From a virus (lineage: Duplodnaviria; Heunggongvirae; Uroviricota; Caudoviricetes), in IMG/VR virus record IMGVR_UViG_2693429605_000015, positions 1 through 15,800 of that record: a stretch of 15,800 nt of DNA; one strand, written 5' to 3'. The notes beneath the pieces were generated by a model, which saw only the letters and a list, made by a program, of their open reading frames with translations, searched no databases and was not told the origin of the DNA. Positions 3,897 through 15,800 of the stretch are shown here, one piece after another (position 1 is the stretch's first letter; each line of letters opens with the position of its first letter). The translations under genes were made by a program, and so were the position numbers.

Positions 3897-3905
3897 ATGT
3901 AAGTA
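3850..3905 (+). promoter_or_regulatory. Candidate PRE (CII-activated promoter reading toward cI) with TTGC-N6-TTGC-type sites
   Basis: Perfect TTGCttgtaaTTGC at 3850-3863; a second, imperfect TTGCgagtacTTGT at 3874-3887 sits at the lambda-equivalent distance from a TAAGTA -10 candidate (3900-3905). Both lie in the antisense of the cII 5' end, as in lambda. Confidence 0.4.
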
Positions 3906-3911
3906 TTTCCT

Positions 3912-3947
3912 TAACTAATAAGAAGTTATGCGCATCAACTTATGCGC
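3912..3947 (-). terminator. tR1-like hairpin between nutR and cII
   Basis: GCGCAT (3930-3935) / ATGCGC (3942-3947), 6-bp stem with 6-nt loop; followed on the minus strand by the A/U-rich AUAACUUCUUAUUAG. Weak intrinsic terminator geometry at the position of lambda tR1. Confidence 0.4.
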
Positions 3948-3953
3948 GTTGTA

Positions 3954-3998
3954 TTCCCGCATTTCGGCGGGAATGAGGACCATGACTGTTAAAGAGCG
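3954..3998 (-). promoter_or_regulatory. nutR: boxA (CGCTCTTTAACA) plus boxB hairpin
   Basis: On the minus strand: CGCTCTTTAACA (plus 3987-3998), 13-nt spacer, then hairpin TTCCCGC-CGAAAT-GCGGGAA (plus 3954-3973). The boxB is identical to the one at 5651-5668 downstream of PL. Confidence 0.6.
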
Positions 3999-4004
3999 GT
4001 GTTA

Positions 4005-4199
4005 CTATTTGTTTTTCTTGTTGCTTGGGAAAGGACGAACTTCCTCTCCAATCACACTGCCATCAGGCTTTACCGTAACCATGATGTTACGGCCTGCCAG
4101 AATGGCCTTGCTGATAGCGCACTGGATTACACCAAAGTCACTGGCTGCTTTAGCCTGTCCATGGATTTTGGCGTAATCGGCAAGTGTCATTCGAATCAT
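4005..4199 (-). CDS. cro: Cro repressor
   Basis: [39 protein letters not shown]...[11 protein letters not shown] is colinear with lambda Cro as recalled. Start placed at ATG 4199 (GGAG 7 nt upstream) rather than the track's GTG at 4205. Confidence 0.85.
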
Positions 4200-4228
4200 A
4201 TGCACTCTCCGTTATTAACCATGAACAA

Positions 4229-4299
4229 AGAATACTACAGGTATTCAAAGCAATCAATACTCAGGGTATTTTTAGTTTAAGTACCTTAGCTATTAGAAT
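4229..4299. promoter_or_regulatory. OR operator cluster with divergent PR (toward cro) and PRM (toward cI)
   Basis: Three 15-bp sites of form AATAC-N5-GTATT: 4231-4245 and 4256-4270 (perfect half-sites) and 4280-4294 (AgTAC...cTATT), centres 24-25 bp apart. PR on minus: -35 TTGATT (plus 4252-4257), 17-bp spacer, -10 TATTCT (plus 4229-4234). PRM on plus: -10 TAGAAT 4294-4299, 7 nt before the cI ATG, implying a near-leaderless cI mRNA as in lambda. Confidence 0.65.
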
Positions 4300-4305
4300 T
4301 AAGCT

Positions 4306-5022
4306 ATGGAAAATAAAAAATCACTGACGACAGAACAGCTGGAAGACGCTAAGCGGCTTAAGGCTTTGTATGAGTCAAAAAAGAAAGAATTGGGAATAAC
4401 CCAATACTCAATCGCTGATGAACTGGGTATCACCCAAGGAGCGGTAGGGCATTATCTTAATGGCAGAAATGCGCTAAACGTTGAGGTTGCATCTGGTTTT
4501 GCACGATTGTTGCAAGTCTCAATTGCTGATTTTAGCCAGTCAATTGCTGCCAAGGTTGCAGAACAGGCAGAAAGCCTTAAGAGCGATGCCAACGTAAGGT
4601 ATGCAGGGGAATACAGAGCAGGAAAGAGGTATCCGGTGTTAAGCAGTATCCAGGCTGGCTCGTGGTGTGAAGCATGCGAACCATACACCATTAAAGACAT
4701 AGATGTTTGGCTTGAGTCTGACGCGCATATTCAAGGTAATGCGTTCTGGCTTAAAGTGGAAGGTGATTCAATGACGGCACCGGTTGGGTTAAGCATTCCA
4801 GAGGGAACATTCGTTCTTTTCGATACCGGAAGGGAGGCGATCAACGGCAGCTTGGTCATAGCAAAACTTTCTGACTCTAACGAAGCAACATTCAAGAAGC
4901 TGATAATCGACGGCGGAAATAAATACCTCAAGGGACTTAATCCTGCATGGCCTCTCGTGCCAATCAATGGAAACTGCAAGATTATAGGCGTTGCAATTGA
5001 GACAAAACTAAGGCTGGTTTGA
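4306..5022 (+). CDS. cI: CI repressor (HTH N-terminal domain, LexA/S24-type autocleavage C-terminal domain)
   Basis: LTTEQLEDAKRLKALYESKKKELGITQ colinear with lambda CI as recalled; candidate Ala-Gly cleavage site in IQAGSW; Ser and Lys motifs VEGDSMTAP and TFKKLI match lambda VEGNSMTAP / TFKKLI. Confidence 0.9.
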   Translation: MENKKSLTTEQLEDAKRLKALYESKKKELGITQYSIADELGITQGAVGHYLNGRNALNVEVASGFARLLQVSIADFSQSIAAKVAEQAESLKSDANVRYAGEYRAGKRYPVLSSIQAGSWCEACEPYTIKDIDVWLESDAHIQGNAFWLKVEGDSMTAPVGLSIPEGTFVLFDTGREAINGSLVIAKLSDSNEATFKKLIIDGGNKYLKGLNPAWPLVPINGNCKIIGVAIETKLRLV

Positions 5023-5039
5023 TCACGCAAGGGGCGATT

Positions 5040-5408
5040 ATGGTTGGAACCGCTATAGCAAGCTTTTTTGGGATGTTGGCAATCTCGACAATTTACGGCT
5101 TAGCGCATGCTTTTATTGCGAAATCTCTATCAGAAAAAATAAGCCAGGCTTGGGCGCATAGATCAGCTCGTTTCATGATTCTAGTGATCATAGCAATACA
5201 AGGGATATCTGCATTTATCCTCTATGGTTCAAGCTTATACCTGTTGTATCAAGGCGCGACATTTACGCCTTACACCAGTGATTACGGAACTCTATACGAT
5301 GGTAGTGAAGACATCTCTATGGCTTGGATTGTCTTTGGTTTATCTATGGCCGTGTCTGTTGTAGCAGATATCATTAAGGTAATTCTCGTCTTAACCTTCG
5401 CTGACTAA
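5040..5408 (+). CDS. Small integral membrane protein (about 3 TM) co-transcribed downstream of cI, in the rexA/rexB position
   Basis: ATG at 5040 with AAGGGG SD 5 nt upstream, 18 nt after the cI stop; three hydrophobic segments (VGTAIASFFGMLAISTIYGLAHAFIA; FMILVIIAIQGISAFILYG; MAWIVFGLSMAVSVVADIIKVILVL). No recognisable similarity to lambda RexB from memory. Confidence 0.6.
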   Translation: MVGTAIASFFGMLAISTIYGLAHAFIAKSLSEKISQAWAHRSARFMILVIIAIQGISAFILYGSSLYLLYQGATFTPYTSDYGTLYDGSEDISMAWIVFGLSMAVSVVADIIKVILVLTFAD

Positions 5409-5494
5409 CCTATAATCCCGGCAGCAATAGCTATCGGGATCCACTTCACATATCCCGCATAAAAAGCACTGAACAAGCAGACACCGAAAAAATA

Positions 5495-5581
5495 AATATC
5501 CTTTGTATTCATTTGCTTATCATTATTTCATCAAAAATAAATACCTTGGGTATTTACACAATAAAATACCTACAGTATTCT
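5495..5581 (+). promoter_or_regulatory. OL operators and PL promoter
   Basis: AATACCTTGGGTATT (5540-5554) and AATACCTACAGTATT (5565-5579) share the OR half-sites; a third, weaker AATATCCTTTGTATT at 5495-5509. PL: -35 TTTACA 5553-5558, 17-bp spacer, -10 TATTCT 5576-5581. Confidence 0.6.
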
Positions 5582-5627
5582 TTAGCCATCAGCAGGACGC
5601 TGGAAGCCAAACGGAACAGATTGGCAG

Positions 5628-5668
5628 GCTCTTTAACATTGATGGGATTGTCCCGCCGAAATGCGGGA
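5628..5668 (+). promoter_or_regulatory. nutL: boxA (GCTCTTTAACA) plus boxB hairpin
   Basis: GCTCTTTAACA at 5628-5638 (matches the rrn/lambdoid boxA consensus as recalled), 12-nt spacer, hairpin TCCCGC-CGAAAT-GCGGGA at 5651-5668, identical to the nutR boxB. Confidence 0.6.
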
Positions 5669-6112
5669 ACTGAGTTTAACCAAACAGGAGGTGCCGTAAT
5701 GGTGCACTAACGCGGTTAGACCGCAGCCGAAAGGAAATGCAGCAGTAATGATGCTGCCCTGAGTCGCCATTGAGCGAGCCTGCTTAGCATCGGGTTAGGG
5801 TCAATATATTAAAAGTAGCTCCGGTAAAGCAGCGCGAATGCCAGACGCGCACCGGTTATCAGCGGCGATGAAGCGGCAGAGACTCAAGGGCATGAGCGCG
5901 CTCACTGCGAGAGTGTGAGTCAAAGAGTAGTTGGCTTTGGGATTGGATGAATGAGCAGGCTGATGCTCGACCAATGTATAAACAGCGCTCATGGCAAGCA
6001 GTAACCAATCTGCGCCTCAAGACAGCGTCACTGGTAGTGCGGGCGCTCTAACCAGTAAGCCGGAATTCAGCACCGGCCATCCAATCACCAAAGTCAATCA
6101 TCGGAGGTCAAC

Positions 6113-6385
6113 ATGACAGTAGTCATTACATATCTGGCTGACGATAACGCCAGAAATCGCCGCAGAGCACGCAGACAGGCTCAACGTGAGCAGGCAATGC
6201 AAGAACAGCGACTGGCGCGAAAAATTGCGCTAAAGCTCTCTGGTTGCGTCAGAGCAGACAAAGCAGCATCACTCGGAAGCCTTCGCTGCAAGAAGGCAGA
6301 TGAATGCAGTGGAAGTATTTGCCTGCCAAACGTAGCCATTTACGCGGCAGGCTACCGGAAATCAAAACAACTGACGGCGAGGTAA
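6113..6385 (+). CDS. N: N-type transcription antiterminator (P22 gene 24-like)
   Basis: N-terminal arginine-rich motif NARNRRRARRQAQREQ; C-terminal VAIYAAGYRKSKQLTAR resembles the P22 gp24 C-terminus as recalled; GGAGG SD; sits downstream of PL/nutL. Confidence 0.75.
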   Translation: MTVVITYLADDNARNRRRARRQAQREQAMQEQRLARKIALKLSGCVRADKAASLGSLRCKKADECSGSICLPNVAIYAAGYRKSKQLTAR

Positions 6386-7382: not shown

Positions 7383-8474
7383 ATGGCTATTCAGACTAAA
7401 ACATTGCAGGTACGCGTCAAAGACCGCCACGCCGCCTTGTTGCGTCAGATGGCCTTTGAAGTGAACCAAGTTTTTAACTTTATCAATGAAATGACTGCGA
7501 CTGAATACAGCACTGTCAGCGAATACGGACCAAAACAAAGAGTTTGGTTAACTGAATTTGACGTAGATAAACGCATTGCTGGTATTCAAAAGGAGCGCGG
7601 ATACCACATACAAGCAGCTACTTGTCAGGAAATCTCAAAACATCACGCTAAAGCGCGTAAACAGTTTAAACGCAGTAAGCTGCGCTGGCGTAAAAGTGGC
7701 GGTGCTGGGCGTAGTCTTGGTTGGGTTCCGTTCAAAGGTGCTCAAGTGAAATGGGTAAACGGCTGCATCAAGTTTGCCGGGCACTATTTCAAAGTGTGGG
7801 ATAGCTATGGATTAAATGGCTTTAAATTCCGTGCTGGTAACTTTGCAGAAGATGCGCGCGGTCGCTGGTATTTCAATGTTGCAGTTGAATACGAATGCGA
7901 ACCAACTAAAGGCACTGCCGACGTGGGTATCGATCTTGGTCTGAAAGACATTGCCACCACTTCGGATGGTGAAAAACTTCCTGCTAAACGTTGGTATCGT
8001 GAATTAGAAGGCAAATTAAAAATTGCTCAACGTGCCCATAATAAAAAACGTGTTAGAGCTATCCACGCAAAAATCAAAAATCGCCGTAAAGATGCACACC
8101 ATAAGTTTTCTACGGCGCTGGTTAATAAATACGCCGCTATTTTTGTAGGCGACGTAAGCAGTAAAAAGTTATCAAAAACAAATTTGGCAAAAAGTATCTA
8201 CGACGCCGGCTGGTGTCAGCTAAAAAATCAGATTCAGTATAAAGCGATTGCGCGGAGTGTGGTTTTTGAGGTCGTAGATGAAGCGTACACCACCCAGACT
8301 TGCTCGTGCTGCGGAGCTATTAGCTGCAGTAGTCCGAAGGGTAGGGTAGGCCTTGGAATAAGAGAATGGATCTGCGTGGAATGTGGTGAACTCCACGACC
8401 GCGACGTAAACGCGGCAAAGAACATTCTCGCGGCGGGACATCGCCGTCTCGAAGGAGGAATCCACGCCCTTTAG
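7383..8474 (+). CDS. tnpB: TnpB-family protein (IS200/IS605 OrfB-like; RuvC-like nuclease fold with zinc finger), 363 aa
   Basis: RuvC-I VGIDLGLKDIATTSDG; zinc finger TQTCSCCG...WICVECG; RuvC-III HDRDVNAAKNI; DAGW...YKA helper motif. GGGGAG SD upstream. No tnpA-like (HUH) ORF nearby. Confidence 0.85.
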   Translation: MAIQTKTLQVRVKDRHAALLRQMAFEVNQVFNFINEMTATEYSTVSEYGPKQRVWLTEFDVDKRIAGIQKERGYHIQAATCQEISKHHAKARKQFKRSKLRWRKSGGAGRSLGWVPFKGAQVKWVNGCIKFAGHYFKVWDSYGLNGFKFRAGNFAEDARGRWYFNVAVEYECEPTKGTADVGIDLGLKDIATTSDGEKLPAKRWYRELEGKLKIAQRAHNKKRVRAIHAKIKNRRKDAHHKFSTALVNKYAAIFVGDVSSKKLSKTNLAKSIYDAGWCQLKNQIQYKAIARSVVFEVVDEAYTTQTCSCCGAISCSSPKGRVGLGIREWICVECGELHDRDVNAAKNILAAGHRRLEGGIHAL

Positions 8475-13213: not shown

Positions 13214-13325
13214 ATTAGTAGCATAGCATAAAGATGCTTGCATTAATGAAGTGTGTATAATAACGCCTCATCAATAGTAAACTACTGAAATAGCAAAAAA
13301 ATGCATATTAAAGAGGATTCGAAAA

Positions 13326-13517
13326 TTGAAAATGTTCATGCAAATAGACAGACGCATAGATATTAATGGCAATTCATACTTAGTTAGATGCGAAGAGAGG
13401 CCTAACGGTGAGTGGCGTGTATATGATATTGACCGTAAGATCAATATCAGCACCATGAACAAAGACACTGCCTTTGATGAATGGAAAGCTGAAGCTAAAA
13501 AACAACATAATTCGTAG
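13326..13517 (+). CDS. Small hypothetical protein (about 61-63 aa)
   Basis: Follows an AT-rich promoter-like gap (13214-13325); start TTG 13326 or ATG 13332; AGAGGA upstream. Confidence 0.4.
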   Translation: MKMFMQIDRRIDINGNSYLVRCEERPNGEWRVYDIDRKINISTMNKDTAFDEWKAEAKKQHNS

Positions 13518-13559
13518 AATTACAAAAACCCTAACCAATTGATGGATTTCTTTTATCTG

Positions 13560-13585
13560 AACTCGCTACGGCGAGTTTTGTTTTA
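13560..13585 (+). terminator. Rho-independent terminator
   Basis: AACTCGC (13560-13566) / GCGAGTT (13571-13577), 7-bp stem with 4-nt loop, followed by TTGTTTTA. Confidence 0.5.
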
Positions 13586-13597
13586 TGGAGATGATAA

Positions 13598-13765
13598 ATG
13601 CACTTCCGAGTCACAGGTGAATGGAATGGAGAACCATTCAACAGAGTTATCGAAGCGGAGAACATCAACGACTGCTATGACCACTGGATGATATGGGCGC
13701 AGATAGCGCATGCAGACGTAACCAATATTCGAATTGAAGAACTGAAAGAACACCAAGCCGCCTGA
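13598..13765 (+). CDS. Small hypothetical protein (55 aa)
   Basis: Hand-translated MHFRVTGEWNGEPFNRVIEAENINDCYDHWMIWAQIAHADVTNIRIEELKEHQAA; GGAG SD; followed by a terminator. Confidence 0.45.
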   Translation: MHFRVTGEWNGEPFNRVIEAENINDCYDHWMIWAQIAHADVTNIRIEELKEHQAA

Positions 13766-13780
13766 TGGCGGTTTTTTATT
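13756..13780 (+). terminator. Rho-independent terminator
   Basis: CCGCC (13758-13762) / GGCGG (13767-13771) stem with TGAT loop, followed by TTTTTTATT. Confidence 0.6.
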
Positions 13781-13787
13781 GCCTGAT

Positions 13788-13803
13788 TTGCAGGTTCGAT
13801 TCC
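13788..13803 (+). other. tRNA T-arm-like fragment (TTGCAGGTTCGATTCC) just upstream of torI
   Basis: 16 nt identical to the T-stem/loop portion of tRNA-Arg (argW) as recalled; the downstream sequence does not complete a tRNA (no matching 3' T-stem or acceptor). Confidence 0.4.
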
Positions 13804-13822
13804 CTATTCGGAGATAGCACTC

Positions 13823-14023
13823 ATGCAACACGAACTACAACCTGATTCACTGGTTGATTTGAAATTCATCATGGCTGATACTGGCTTCGGTAAGACCTTC
13901 ATCTATGACCGGATTAAGTCCGGCGACCTGCCAAAAGCCAAAGTTATCCACGGGCGAGCAAGATGGTTATATCGTGACCATTGTGAATTCAAAAATAAGC
14001 TATTAAGCCGCGCCAATGGGTAA
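13823..14023 (+). CDS. torI: TorI-type excisionase / recombination directionality factor (KplE1/CPS-53 family)
   Basis: 66-aa product MQHELQPDSLVDLKFIMADTGFGKTFIYDRIKSGDLPKAKVIHGRARWLYRDHCEFKNKLLS recalled as E. coli TorI; GGAG SD; sits at the prophage end next to the att core. Confidence 0.8.
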   Translation: MQHELQPDSLVDLKFIMADTGFGKTFIYDRIKSGDLPKAKVIHGRARWLYRDHCEFKNKLLSRANG

Positions 14024-14096
14024 AATAGCGGGTAAAATATTTCTCACATCTAAAAAATACCATTCCAATCAATCCCCTGCTGCCTCAAGTAGATGT

Positions 14097-14111
14097 CTGC
14101 AGGGGACACCA
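14097..14111 (+). other. Prophage attachment-site core (attR side): duplicated 3' end of tRNA-Arg (argW)
   Basis: CTGCAGGGGACACCA equals the 3' T-stem strand, acceptor strand, discriminator and CCA of argW as recalled, with no complete tRNA upstream; phage-type genes stop here and a host gene follows. Confidence 0.5.
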
Positions 14112-14552
14112 GATACCCTTCAAACGAAATCTACCTTCACCCCGTAAAAGATGGGTTTGGCAGCACACTTGCCTTATATCTACTCATTTTTACTGCAACA
14201 GGTTGAAATCTCAGCACTGTCAGAAAGCGCTGATGACTAAACAGCCCTGAGCCGGGCGATGTAACCATCACACAGAATCCTGATAGCGAAATATGGCGTG
14301 ACTCGATACTTCACTCCGCAATGCATTCCTTGATGAATTCGCAGGACCGTGATACACGGGACAGGTCACTGAATGACGACAATGTCCTGGAAATCAGCGA
14401 ACCGCGCATCTGAAGTACATTTGAGCGACTGTACCAGAACATGAATGAGGCGTTTGGATTAGGCGATTATTAGCAGGGCTAAGCATTTTACTATTATTAT
14501 TTTCCGGTTGAGGGATATAGAGCTATCGACAACAACCGGAAAAAGTTTACGT

Positions 14553-15800
14553 CTATATTGCTGAAGGTACAGGCGTTTCCATAACTATTTGCTCGCGTTT
14601 TTTACTCAAGAAGAAAATGCCAAATAGCAACATCAGGCAGACAATACCCGAAATTGCGAAGAAAACTGTCTGGTAGCCTGCGTGGTCAAAGAGTATCCCA
14701 GTCGGCGTTGAAAGCAGCACAATCCCAAGCGAACTGGCAATTTGAAAACCAATCAGAAAGATCGTCGACGACAGGCGCTTATCAAAGTTTGCCACGCTGT
14801 ATTTGAAGACGGATATGACACAAAGTGGAACCTCAATGGCATGTAACAACTTCACTAATGAAATAATCCAGGGGTTAACGAACAGCGCGCAGGAAAGGAT
14901 ACGCAACGCCATAATCACAACTCCGATAAGTAATGCATTTTTTGGCCCTACCCGATTCACAAAGAAAGGAATAATCGCCATGCACAGCGCTTCGAGTACC
15001 ACCTGGAATGAGTTGAGATAACCATACAGGCGCGTTCCTACATCGTGTGATTCGAATAAACCTGCATAAAAGACAGGAAAAAGTTGTTGATCAAAAATGT
15101 TATAGAAAGACCACGTCCCCACAATAAATATGACGAAAACCCAGAAGTTTCGATCCTTGAAAACTGCGATAAAATCCTCTTTTTTTACCCCTCCCGCATC
15201 TGCCGCTACGCACTGGTGATCCTTATCTTTAAAACGCATGTTGATCATCATAAATACAGCGCCAAATAGCGAGACCAACCAGAAGTTGATATGGGGACTG
15301 ATACTAAAAAATATGCCGGCAAAGAACGCGCCAATAGCATAGCCAAAAGATCCCCAGGCGCGCGCTGTTCCATATTCGAAATGAAAATTTCGCGCCATTT
15401 TTTCGGTGAAGCTATCAAGCAAACCGCATCCCGCCAGATACCCCAAGCCAAAAAATAGCGCCCCCAGAATTAGACCTACAGAAAAATTGCTTTGCAGTAA
15501 CGGTTCATAAACGTAAATCATAAACGGTCCGGTCAAGACCAGGATGAAACTCATACACCAGATGAGCGGTTTCTTCAGACCGAGTTTATCCTGAACGATG
15601 CCGTAGAACATCATAAATAGAATGCTGGTAAACTGGTTGACCGAATAAAGTGTACCTAATTCCGTCCCTGTCAACCCTAGATGTCCTTTCAGCCAAATAG
15701 CGTATAACGACCACCACAGCGACCAGGAAATAAAAAAGAGAAATGAGTAACTGGATGCAAAACGATAGTACGCATTTCTGAATGGAATATTCAGTGCCAT
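14553..15800 (-). CDS. cscB: LacY-family oligosaccharide:H+ symporter, most likely sucrose permease CscB (host gene)
   Basis: 415-aa, 12-TM MFS protein colinear with LacY; N-terminus MALNIPFRNAYYRFASSYSFLFFISW matches CscB as recalled. Start codon is the last 3 nt of the window (15798-15800). Confidence 0.85.
   Translation of the reverse strand: MALNIPFRNAYYRFASSYSFLFFISWSLWWSLYAIWLKGHLGLTGTELGTLYSVNQFTSILFMMFYGIVQDKLGLKKPLIWCMSFILVLTGPFMIYVYEPLLQSNFSVGLILGALFFGLGYLAGCGLLDSFTEKMARNFHFEYGTARAWGSFGYAIGAFFAGIFFSISPHINFWLVSLFGAVFMMINMRFKDKDHQCVAADAGGVKKEDFIAVFKDRNFWVFVIFIVGTWSFYNIFDQQLFPVFYAGLFESHDVGTRLYGYLNSFQVVLEALCMAIIPFFVNRVGPKNALLIGVVIMALRILSCALFVNPWIISLVKLLHAIEVPLCVISVFKYSVANFDKRLSSTIFLIGFQIASSLGIVLLSTPTGILFDHAGYQTVFFAISGIVCLMLLFGIFFLSKKREQIVMETPVPSAI

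Follow-up and report, generated by a model that had tools for sequence, protein, structure and literature searches.

The hkaS gene, which directly follows the cI repressor gene of an HK620-type lambdoid prophage, very probably encodes a real membrane protein of the cI operon. Whether this protein, HkaS, has an anti-phage function is an even call, and the explanation that we favor, held with the same evenly balanced confidence, is that of a lysogen-expressed phage-exclusion factor that would act as a single protein in the inner membrane. A defense role is credible on the grounds of position and analogy, bearing in mind that guilt by position is a weak argument.

The window (the whole 15,800-nt stretch of DNA that was analyzed) belongs to a mosaic lambdoid prophage, of which it covers the early and immunity region. 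Genes for NinB, a DnaB-type helicase, an O-like protein, CII and Cro follow one another on the minus strand, and the plus strand carries, in order, cI, hkaS, OL/pL, N, a TnpB-like gene, Erf, Abc2, Ead/Ea22 and a DUF551 gene, with a host LacY-type transporter gene at the far end (14553–15800, minus strand). Positions 4200–5800 are 98.6–99.3% identical to the immunity regions of HK620, HK630, mEpX2, HK140 and HF4s, and equally similar to those of two phi296-type Stx phages and two Stx2c-converting phages. The repressor itself is 99.6–100% identical to those of HK620, mEpX2 and HK140. Features of the immunity region are collected in Table 1, in which OR1–OR3 and pR were placed by transfer of the HK620 annotation (window position = L001 position + 1199).

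Table 1 Features of the immunity region around hkaS (window coordinates)
Feature	Coordinates	Strand	Basis or remark
cro	4005..4205	-	Divergent from cI; Pfam Cro, E 3.6e-26; HK620 annotation
OR operators with pR/PRM region	4206..4305	.	Between cro and cI; HK620 annotation transfer only
cI repressor, 238 aa	4306..5022	+	HTH_3 and Peptidase_S24
hkaS Shine-Dalgarno AAGGGG	5029..5034	+	From sequence
hkaS, 122-aa predicted three-helix inner-membrane protein	5040..5408	+	
Stable RNA hairpin	5415..5440	+	6 nt past hkaS stop; no U-tract; presumed 3' end or terminator element
OL region, three operator-like repeats (5487–5509, 5532–5554, 5557–5579)	5487..5579	+	Direct-repeat family D1
pL promoter, TTTACA-17-TATTCT	5553..5581	+	Same as HK620 pL; predicted
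N antiterminator, first pL-operon gene	6113..6385	+	Pfam N_peptide, E 1.1e-15

The OL2 and OL1 repeats of the window are consistent with the HK620 annotation. The third operator-like repeat (AAAAAATAAATATCCTTTGTATT, 5487–5509) lies 45 bp upstream of OL2 and is kept in L002, L004, L006 and L208. The HK620 record puts OL3 at the equivalent of 5517–5533, in a sequence unlike the other operators, and tIMM over 5490–5520; both published placements may be open to revision. The leader from pL to N (5582–6112) is about 530 nt long, that of lambda being much shorter, and contains the annotated nutL (about 5627–5668) and minus-strand ORFs of 45–63 aa (5633–5770 and 5801–5992). Also in the pL operon, between N and erf, is a 363-aa TnpB-like protein with an OrfB_IS605 and a Cas12f1-like TNB domain (7383–8474, plus strand). 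No Rfam RNA family was matched anywhere in the window. Between the DUF551 gene and the LacY-type gene (13214–14552), no integrase or excisionase was recognized and no tRNA was found; the ORFs there are short and without Pfam matches, and this end of the prophage may be degraded or of an unusual type.

The initial annotation described an ORF of roughly 122 aa with its own Shine-Dalgarno sequence, 18 nt behind cI. The ORF indeed runs over 122 codons from ATG to TAA, the AAGGGG motif stands 5 nt ahead of the start, with AAGGA or AAGGG at the equivalent place in L002, L006, L117 and L206, and the actual gap is 17 nt, the cI stop codon (TGA) being at 5020–5022. The upstream gene was correctly taken for cI, as its domains and the divergent cro indicate. 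The sequence had been reported as not recognized; no family of known function is matched by it, but the ORF is the annotated hkaS of HK620, listed in that record since 2001 with the product "unknown". A 129-aa form starting from TTG at 5019 is excluded by an in-frame TAA directly ahead of the conserved ATG in L002. We conclude that hkaS is not a chance ORF, because homologues of 52–61% identity keep its frame, length and position, because it is intact in 80 of 80 IMG/VR viral loci (the best-scoring 80, so that intactness is possibly slightly overestimated), and because its within-clade dN/dS is 0.20. A few frameshifted alleles exist (P0005, P0007, P0009).

On the opposite strand, a 35-aa hydrophobic ORF (MNTKDIYFFGVCLFSAFYAGYVKWIPIAIAAGIIG; 5405–5512, minus strand) is convergent with hkaS, with overlapping stop codons and an ATG inside an operator-like repeat, and some phage records annotate extra hypothetical proteins around this place. 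It was considered as a type-I-toxin-like partner and rejected; since it is not conserved in L002, L004 and L006, it is probably spurious.

The order cI, hkaS, hairpin, OL/pL, N, with hkaS co-oriented with cI, bears out the earlier placement of the gene in the rexAB position and agrees with the HK620 annotation (cI, hkaS, putative tIMM terminator, OL3–OL1, pL, nutL, N), whose authors placed tIMM after hkaS. Between PRM and pL, no sigma-70-like promoter was found on the plus strand except pL itself, which is the sole plus-strand promoter-like site in 3900–6200, and no intrinsic-terminator pattern was found on that strand between cI and hkaS or elsewhere from PRM to pL. The window hairpin after hkaS has a folding energy of −15.3 kcal/mol (z −2.6), and hairpins of unrelated sequence directly follow the hkaS stop in four diverged lineages (the window, L002, L006 and L117; −15 to −18.5 kcal/mol, z −1.8 to −3.4). 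Only that of L117 has a U-tract, making it a canonical terminator, which lies 20 nt past the end of hkaS and leaves about 130 nt to pL; in the window and the two other lineages the U-tract is missing and termination is at most presumed. From this arrangement we infer transcription of hkaS from PRM, in a cI-hkaS transcript that would end before OL like the cI-rexA-rexB-tIMM transcript of lambda, and hkaS thus appears to borrow the cI promoter. In BTP1, RNA-seq shows that bstA, which occupies the equivalent position, is transcribed from the cI promoter (PMC7067206).

Hydropathy analysis (threshold 1.6) delineates three hydrophobic segments in HkaS, at residues 1–27, 42–68 and 91–122, with alternative approximate limits of 43–70 and 92–121 for the second and third. 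The loop at 28–44 is basic (K28, K33, R41, R44) and the loop at 71–91 acidic (D81, D87, E90, D91), and this positive-inside charge distribution would make the N-terminus and the acidic loop periplasmic and the C-terminus cytoplasmic (N-out/C-in). An AlphaFold2 model built from a 7-sequence alignment (mean pLDDT 92.3, pTM 0.79) contains helices at 2–29, 31–38 (short and amphipathic), 41–73 and 89–121 and a small beta-hairpin at 78–85; because the alignment is shallow and long helices are easily predicted, the model was used for topology only. Prediction from hydropathy, charge distribution and AlphaFold2 thus upholds the small polytopic membrane protein with three transmembrane (TM) helices that was originally proposed, and HkaS is predicted to be an integral inner-membrane protein. 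The protein ends within TM3 (..VLTFAD), and invariant polar or charged residues lie within the helices (Q54, D110 and K113). A cleavable signal peptide was rejected, the AHA-F motif at residues 22–25 not being kept in homologues.

The HkaS family is tiny and restricted to Enterobacterales prophages. In a search of 5.8 billion proteins, no more than 12 clusters matched, with identity falling to 52% in the most distant; a profile search against 1.84 billion protein representatives found just 2 proteins, both from the family itself, and a scan of 241 million metagenome records gave 37 hkaS loci. Across these sequence, profile and metagenome searches, HkaS was never found as a chromosomal gene outside prophages. 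As to occurrence in related prophages, a point raised with the initial annotation, 146 of the 5426 complete E. coli genomes (2.7%) carry the cI-hkaS module, with 146 of the 147 matching E. coli records covering at least 80% of the cI-hkaS-OL query, and there are homologues in Salmonella, Hafnia and Buttiauxella. Profile and structure searches identified no family of known function, but a family for the protein already exists: the sole match in PHROGs is phrog_6534 (PHROG 6534), annotated as function unknown. Pfam gave only sub-threshold matches to transmembrane segments (Cation_ATPase_C, 19 bits vs. a cut-off of 27), NCBIfam, PADLOC and PDB sequences gave none, and fold searches with the HkaS model retrieved thousands of generic helical bundles only. 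A literature search found no paper addressing the function of hkaS, the papers on mEpX2, HK630 and HK140 being silent on the gene.

All full-length members have exactly 122 residues, and 36 alignment columns are invariant in members down to 52% identity: M1, G3, A5, S8, G11, I15, S16, Y19, K33, Q36, W38 and H40 in the N-terminal half; A43–F45, I47, L48, A52, Q54, I56, Y67, L69, Y70 and T74 in the middle; and G88, W96, F99, D110, K113, I115 and V117–D122 toward the C-terminus. The predicted periplasmic hairpin loop is the least conserved region (49% mean identity, 2 of 21 positions invariant), and the predicted cytoplasmic loop (66%) and the C-terminal motif D..K.I.VLTFAD are the most conserved parts. 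Within clades (47 haplotypes), the dN/dS of hkaS compares with 0.018 for cI; hkaS is under purifying selection about ten times more relaxed than that on cI, and diversifying selection is unsupported by these values. No between-lineage dN/dS is computable, because dS is saturated. Between lineages, cI is 86–88% and Cro 82–92% identical, HkaS only 52–61%, and this faster divergence may reflect the tolerance of transmembrane helices to substitution.

Linkage to cI is close. A full-length cI lies 17–19 nt upstream of hkaS in all 79 IMG/VR loci having upstream DNA, and hkaS follows cI by 17–20 nt, with a divergent Cro, in Salmonella (L002–L005), Hafnia (L210–L213) and Buttiauxella (L117, L209); the same arrangement is seen in a Logan contig (L006, L208) and in L214. 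Phages with hkaS in the cI slot include P22-like, lambda-like and Stx phages. In L117 and L209, cI shares its C-terminal domain with HK620 cI but differs in its operators and has an N-terminal HTH domain unrelated to that of HK620 cI, so that HkaS is not bound to a single immunity specificity. The Buttiauxella repressor (L117 2495–3154; L209) is a natural hybrid whose C-terminal S24 domain is close to HK620 cI, suggesting that cI recombined at its domain hinge.

Two further loci hold an HkaS homologue of 58–61% identity that is nowhere near cI (L206 2250–2869 and L207 29–491). There, hkaS starts 21 nt past a tRNA-Met/Phe-like/Thr cluster, downstream of the Q antiterminator, and genes for a P21-type holin and a lysozyme follow about 600 nt further on. 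In Stx phages, it is this slot between Q, tRNAs and holin that harbors stx. The stretch from Q to the tRNAs in these loci contains two genes in reverse orientation, including DUF6037. Similarity to the cI-linked copies begins at the Shine-Dalgarno sequence (AAGGACTTC). Because of these copies, we regard hkaS as a moron-like accessory unit, a self-contained cassette that occurs in different slots and phage backbones and has passed between two classical sites of accessory genes.

To see hkaS among its alternatives, 80 loci around cI relatives (40–76% identity, one genome per species) were surveyed. Only L117 holds an HkaS homologue. An ORF lies within 60 nt of the cI stop in 21 of the 80 loci, and 11 of these 21 have a hydrophobic segment. 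The ten largest slot genes encode one RexA, two BstA, one PDC-S42, one PDC-M03A (HipA-like), a protein with a weak NYN-nuclease match, a DUF1275 membrane protein, an MscS-like channel and two proteins of no recognized kind. The RexA, BstA, PDC-S42, PDC-M03A, DUF1275 and MscS-like genes are the slot cargo of L093, L096, L100, L131, L138, L115 and L095. Small hydrophobic ORFs (43–52 aa) occupy the slot in L097, L104, L129 and L134. Behind the nearest phage repressors (Serratia OS31, Erwinia Eho49, Cronobacter ENT39118 and Fostie) no HkaS-like membrane protein was found, their slots being empty or filled with unrelated soluble proteins. The surveyed genes indicate that these repressors are followed by a cargo site of variable content in which anti-phage systems abound. 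It also holds genes without a defense annotation, namely the DUF1275 protein, the MscS-like channel and 434 Hex. The interval between cI and N has been described as a defense-rich site (Degnan et al. 2007, as cited in PMC8585504 and PMC7067206). BstA of BTP1 and relatives is, like hkaS, the product of a single prophage-restricted gene directly downstream of cI, and it takes the hkaS-equivalent slot in relatives of the window cI family (L096, L131). With about 300 aa, BstA is a soluble Abi protein that binds DNA and has aba as its self-immunity element (PMC8585504); HkaS is a 122-aa membrane protein without a match to the BstA model.

Closer in shape are P22 SieA, HK97 gp15 and T4 Imm, which are single small phage-encoded inner-membrane proteins acting alone. 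HK97 gp15 and T4 Imm block genome transfer across the inner membrane. The genomic slots of SieA (immI) and gp15 (tail region) differ from that of hkaS. SieA is expressed from the prophage, is sufficient for exclusion and blocks genome transfer across the inner membrane (PMC10883804). Homology of HkaS to these described Sie families (SieA, gp15 and Imm) was found neither in PHROGs, Pfam, NCBIfam and PADLOC nor in the profile search of 1.84 billion proteins.

In the mechanism that we propose, hkaS would be the distal cistron of the cI immunity operon, sharing transcripts with cI that start at PRM and, while lysogeny is being established, at PRE, and translated from its own ribosome-binding site. 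HkaS would enter the inner membrane as a three-helix bundle, with its N-terminus and the acidic, fast-evolving beta-hairpin loop facing the periplasm and its basic loop and invariant C-terminal motif at the cytoplasmic face, and would by itself protect the lysogen against other phages at the inner membrane. The preferred mode would be interference with genome entry through that membrane, as by SieA, gp15 and Imm. Several considerations favor it: (i) A membrane-only protein of 122 residues leaves no room for an enzymatic or nucleic-acid-binding domain. (ii) The single-protein precedents of this shape block genome transfer. (iii) The periplasmic hairpin is the least conserved part, and the cytoplasmic loop and C-terminal motif the most conserved. 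A variable periplasmic loop is the pattern expected of a surface that meets changing partners; the periplasmic face would meet variable phage components, and the cytoplasmic and membrane face would keep a constant partner or an oligomer interface. An entry block specifically is nonetheless a tentative proposal, clearly more doubtful than anti-phage activity as such, and a RexA-independent, membrane-depolarizing abortive response is less likely still. Against the defense reading stand the lack of similarity to any known exclusion or defense protein in the library, profile and hhalign searches, the dN/dS without sign of positive selection, and the location of hkaS in L206 and L207 in the late (Q-dependent) region, where expression in the lysogen is not obvious.

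It is possible, though somewhat short of an even prospect, that HkaS is the first member of a new family of anti-phage proteins, each encoded by a single gene and lying in the inner membrane with three helices, which are portable cargo, need no cytoplasmic sensor and work as an entry gate or a Rex-like switch. The prophages concerned would be enterobacterial lambdoid ones, Stx2c-converting prophages included, and the gate would be the variable periplasmic hairpin.

Autonomous cargo of the lysogen in two classical moron slots might instead be a lysogenic-conversion or fitness factor unrelated to phages, which would alter envelope physiology (stress, colicin, antimicrobial or ion tolerance); lambda lom and bor, with their roles in serum resistance and adhesion, are the model. 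The absence of a match to any PADLOC defense model, selection that is purifying and not diversifying, and the MscS-like channel and DUF1275 membrane protein among the other slot occupants all fit such a role. Most annotatable slot genes are, however, defense genes, and the confinement of the family to prophages also speaks against it, so that we consider a conversion factor unlikely.

The slot gene of phage 434 is the precedent for a modulator of the lysis-lysogeny switch or of prophage stability, which might be Hex-like or else a membrane regulator at FtsH/HflKC affecting CII/CIII turnover. Hex is described as protecting the repressor from RecA-stimulated cleavage, and its gene, for about 130 aa, directly follows or overlaps cI in the PRM transcript, as hkaS follows cI; apart from a signal-peptide-like N-terminus, Hex is hydrophilic and free of hydrophobic helices, whereas HkaS has three helices. 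The annotation of the 434 gene as a repressor protection protein, the high conservation of the cytoplasmic loop and C-terminal motif, and the retention of the C-terminal (cleavage) domain in hkaS-linked cI even when the N-terminal domain has been swapped can be read in favor of this role, but physical adjacency explains linkage to the 3' half of cI equally well. HkaS is not a Hex homologue (hhalign probability 0.08%), the L206 and L207 copies far from cI in the late region argue against a cI-specific partner, and the protein has almost no soluble cytoplasmic mass for contact with RecA or cI. We therefore hold a switch modulator to be improbable. The 434 gene itself (L172 2109–2513) begins with the signal-peptide-like MIRIAALLSILLTTSANSECW..., and an exported location of Hex would fit poorly with its proposed role against RecA-mediated cleavage. 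Hex-like proteins of 135 aa follow cI in prophages of Candidatus Erwinia dacicola (L145), Pseudescherichia (L146) and Citrobacter (L154).

Lambda RexB, like HkaS, is a small polytopic inner-membrane protein encoded after cI (with RexA) and before OL/pL, with expression from PRM in the lysogen presumed for both. RexB is 144 aa long and has four helices, compared with 122 aa and three helices in HkaS, and the RexA sensor gene is absent beside hkaS. This absence had been stated in the initial annotation and stands: the interval from the cI stop (5022) to the OL repeats (5487) contains a single ORF, and Pfam and PADLOC detect neither RexA nor RexB. The RexA models work, since a true RexA was detected in the equivalent slot of L093. 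HkaS is not a RexB homologue either, as hhalign against lambda RexB gave a probability of 0.7% and RexB models gave no match in Pfam (PF15968, E ≤ 1) or PADLOC (E ≤ 10); in a control, lambda RexB matched PF15968 at 8.5e-92. Class I holins of the lambda S105 type resemble HkaS in size (about 100–120 aa), in their three TM helices and in the N-out/C-in topology, but HkaS has no charged C-terminal tail, dual-start motif or holin Pfam match, and the window hkaS is encoded in the repressor operon, not beside an endolysin. These comparisons bear on a RexA-independent abortive-infection pore, a holin- or RexB-like oligomeric channel that would collapse the membrane potential upon perturbation by a phage. 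Its attractions are the holin-like topology, the invariant Q54, D110 and K113 inside helices and the rexB position of the gene; with no sensor partner, no RexB or holin family match and no tail typical of holins, and given that an unregulated pore made constitutively with cI would be toxic, we rate it as slightly more improbable than a switch modulator. An antiholin- or holin-modulating accessory of lysis timing, to which the holin-like topology and the proximity of hkaS to the holin (of P21 S type in L206) and lysozyme in L206 and L207 might point, is very improbable, because the cI-linked loci (79 in IMG/VR and about 15 others) are repressor operons far from lysis genes, a terminator-like hairpin separates hkaS from the holin in L206, and no holin family is matched in Pfam.

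The existence of the hkaS ORF is not new, given the HK620 annotation; if it is a defense gene, it would represent a new family of prophage repressor-linked exclusion genes. The cI-hkaS pair occurs in isolated phages of three virion types, Stx2c-converting phages included. Should HkaS have another role, it would still be a membrane protein that is strongly conserved and linked to the lysogen, and for which no relatives are known outside its own family. If it acts in exclusion, HkaS would shape which phages, therapeutic and Stx phages among them, infect these lysogens, and it would constitute a minimal, 122-aa, membrane-only defense module without a RexA-type partner. To our knowledge, how RexB stops phage infection is still unresolved after decades, and an exclusion function would make HkaS a tractable model for small membrane proteins that stop phage infection.
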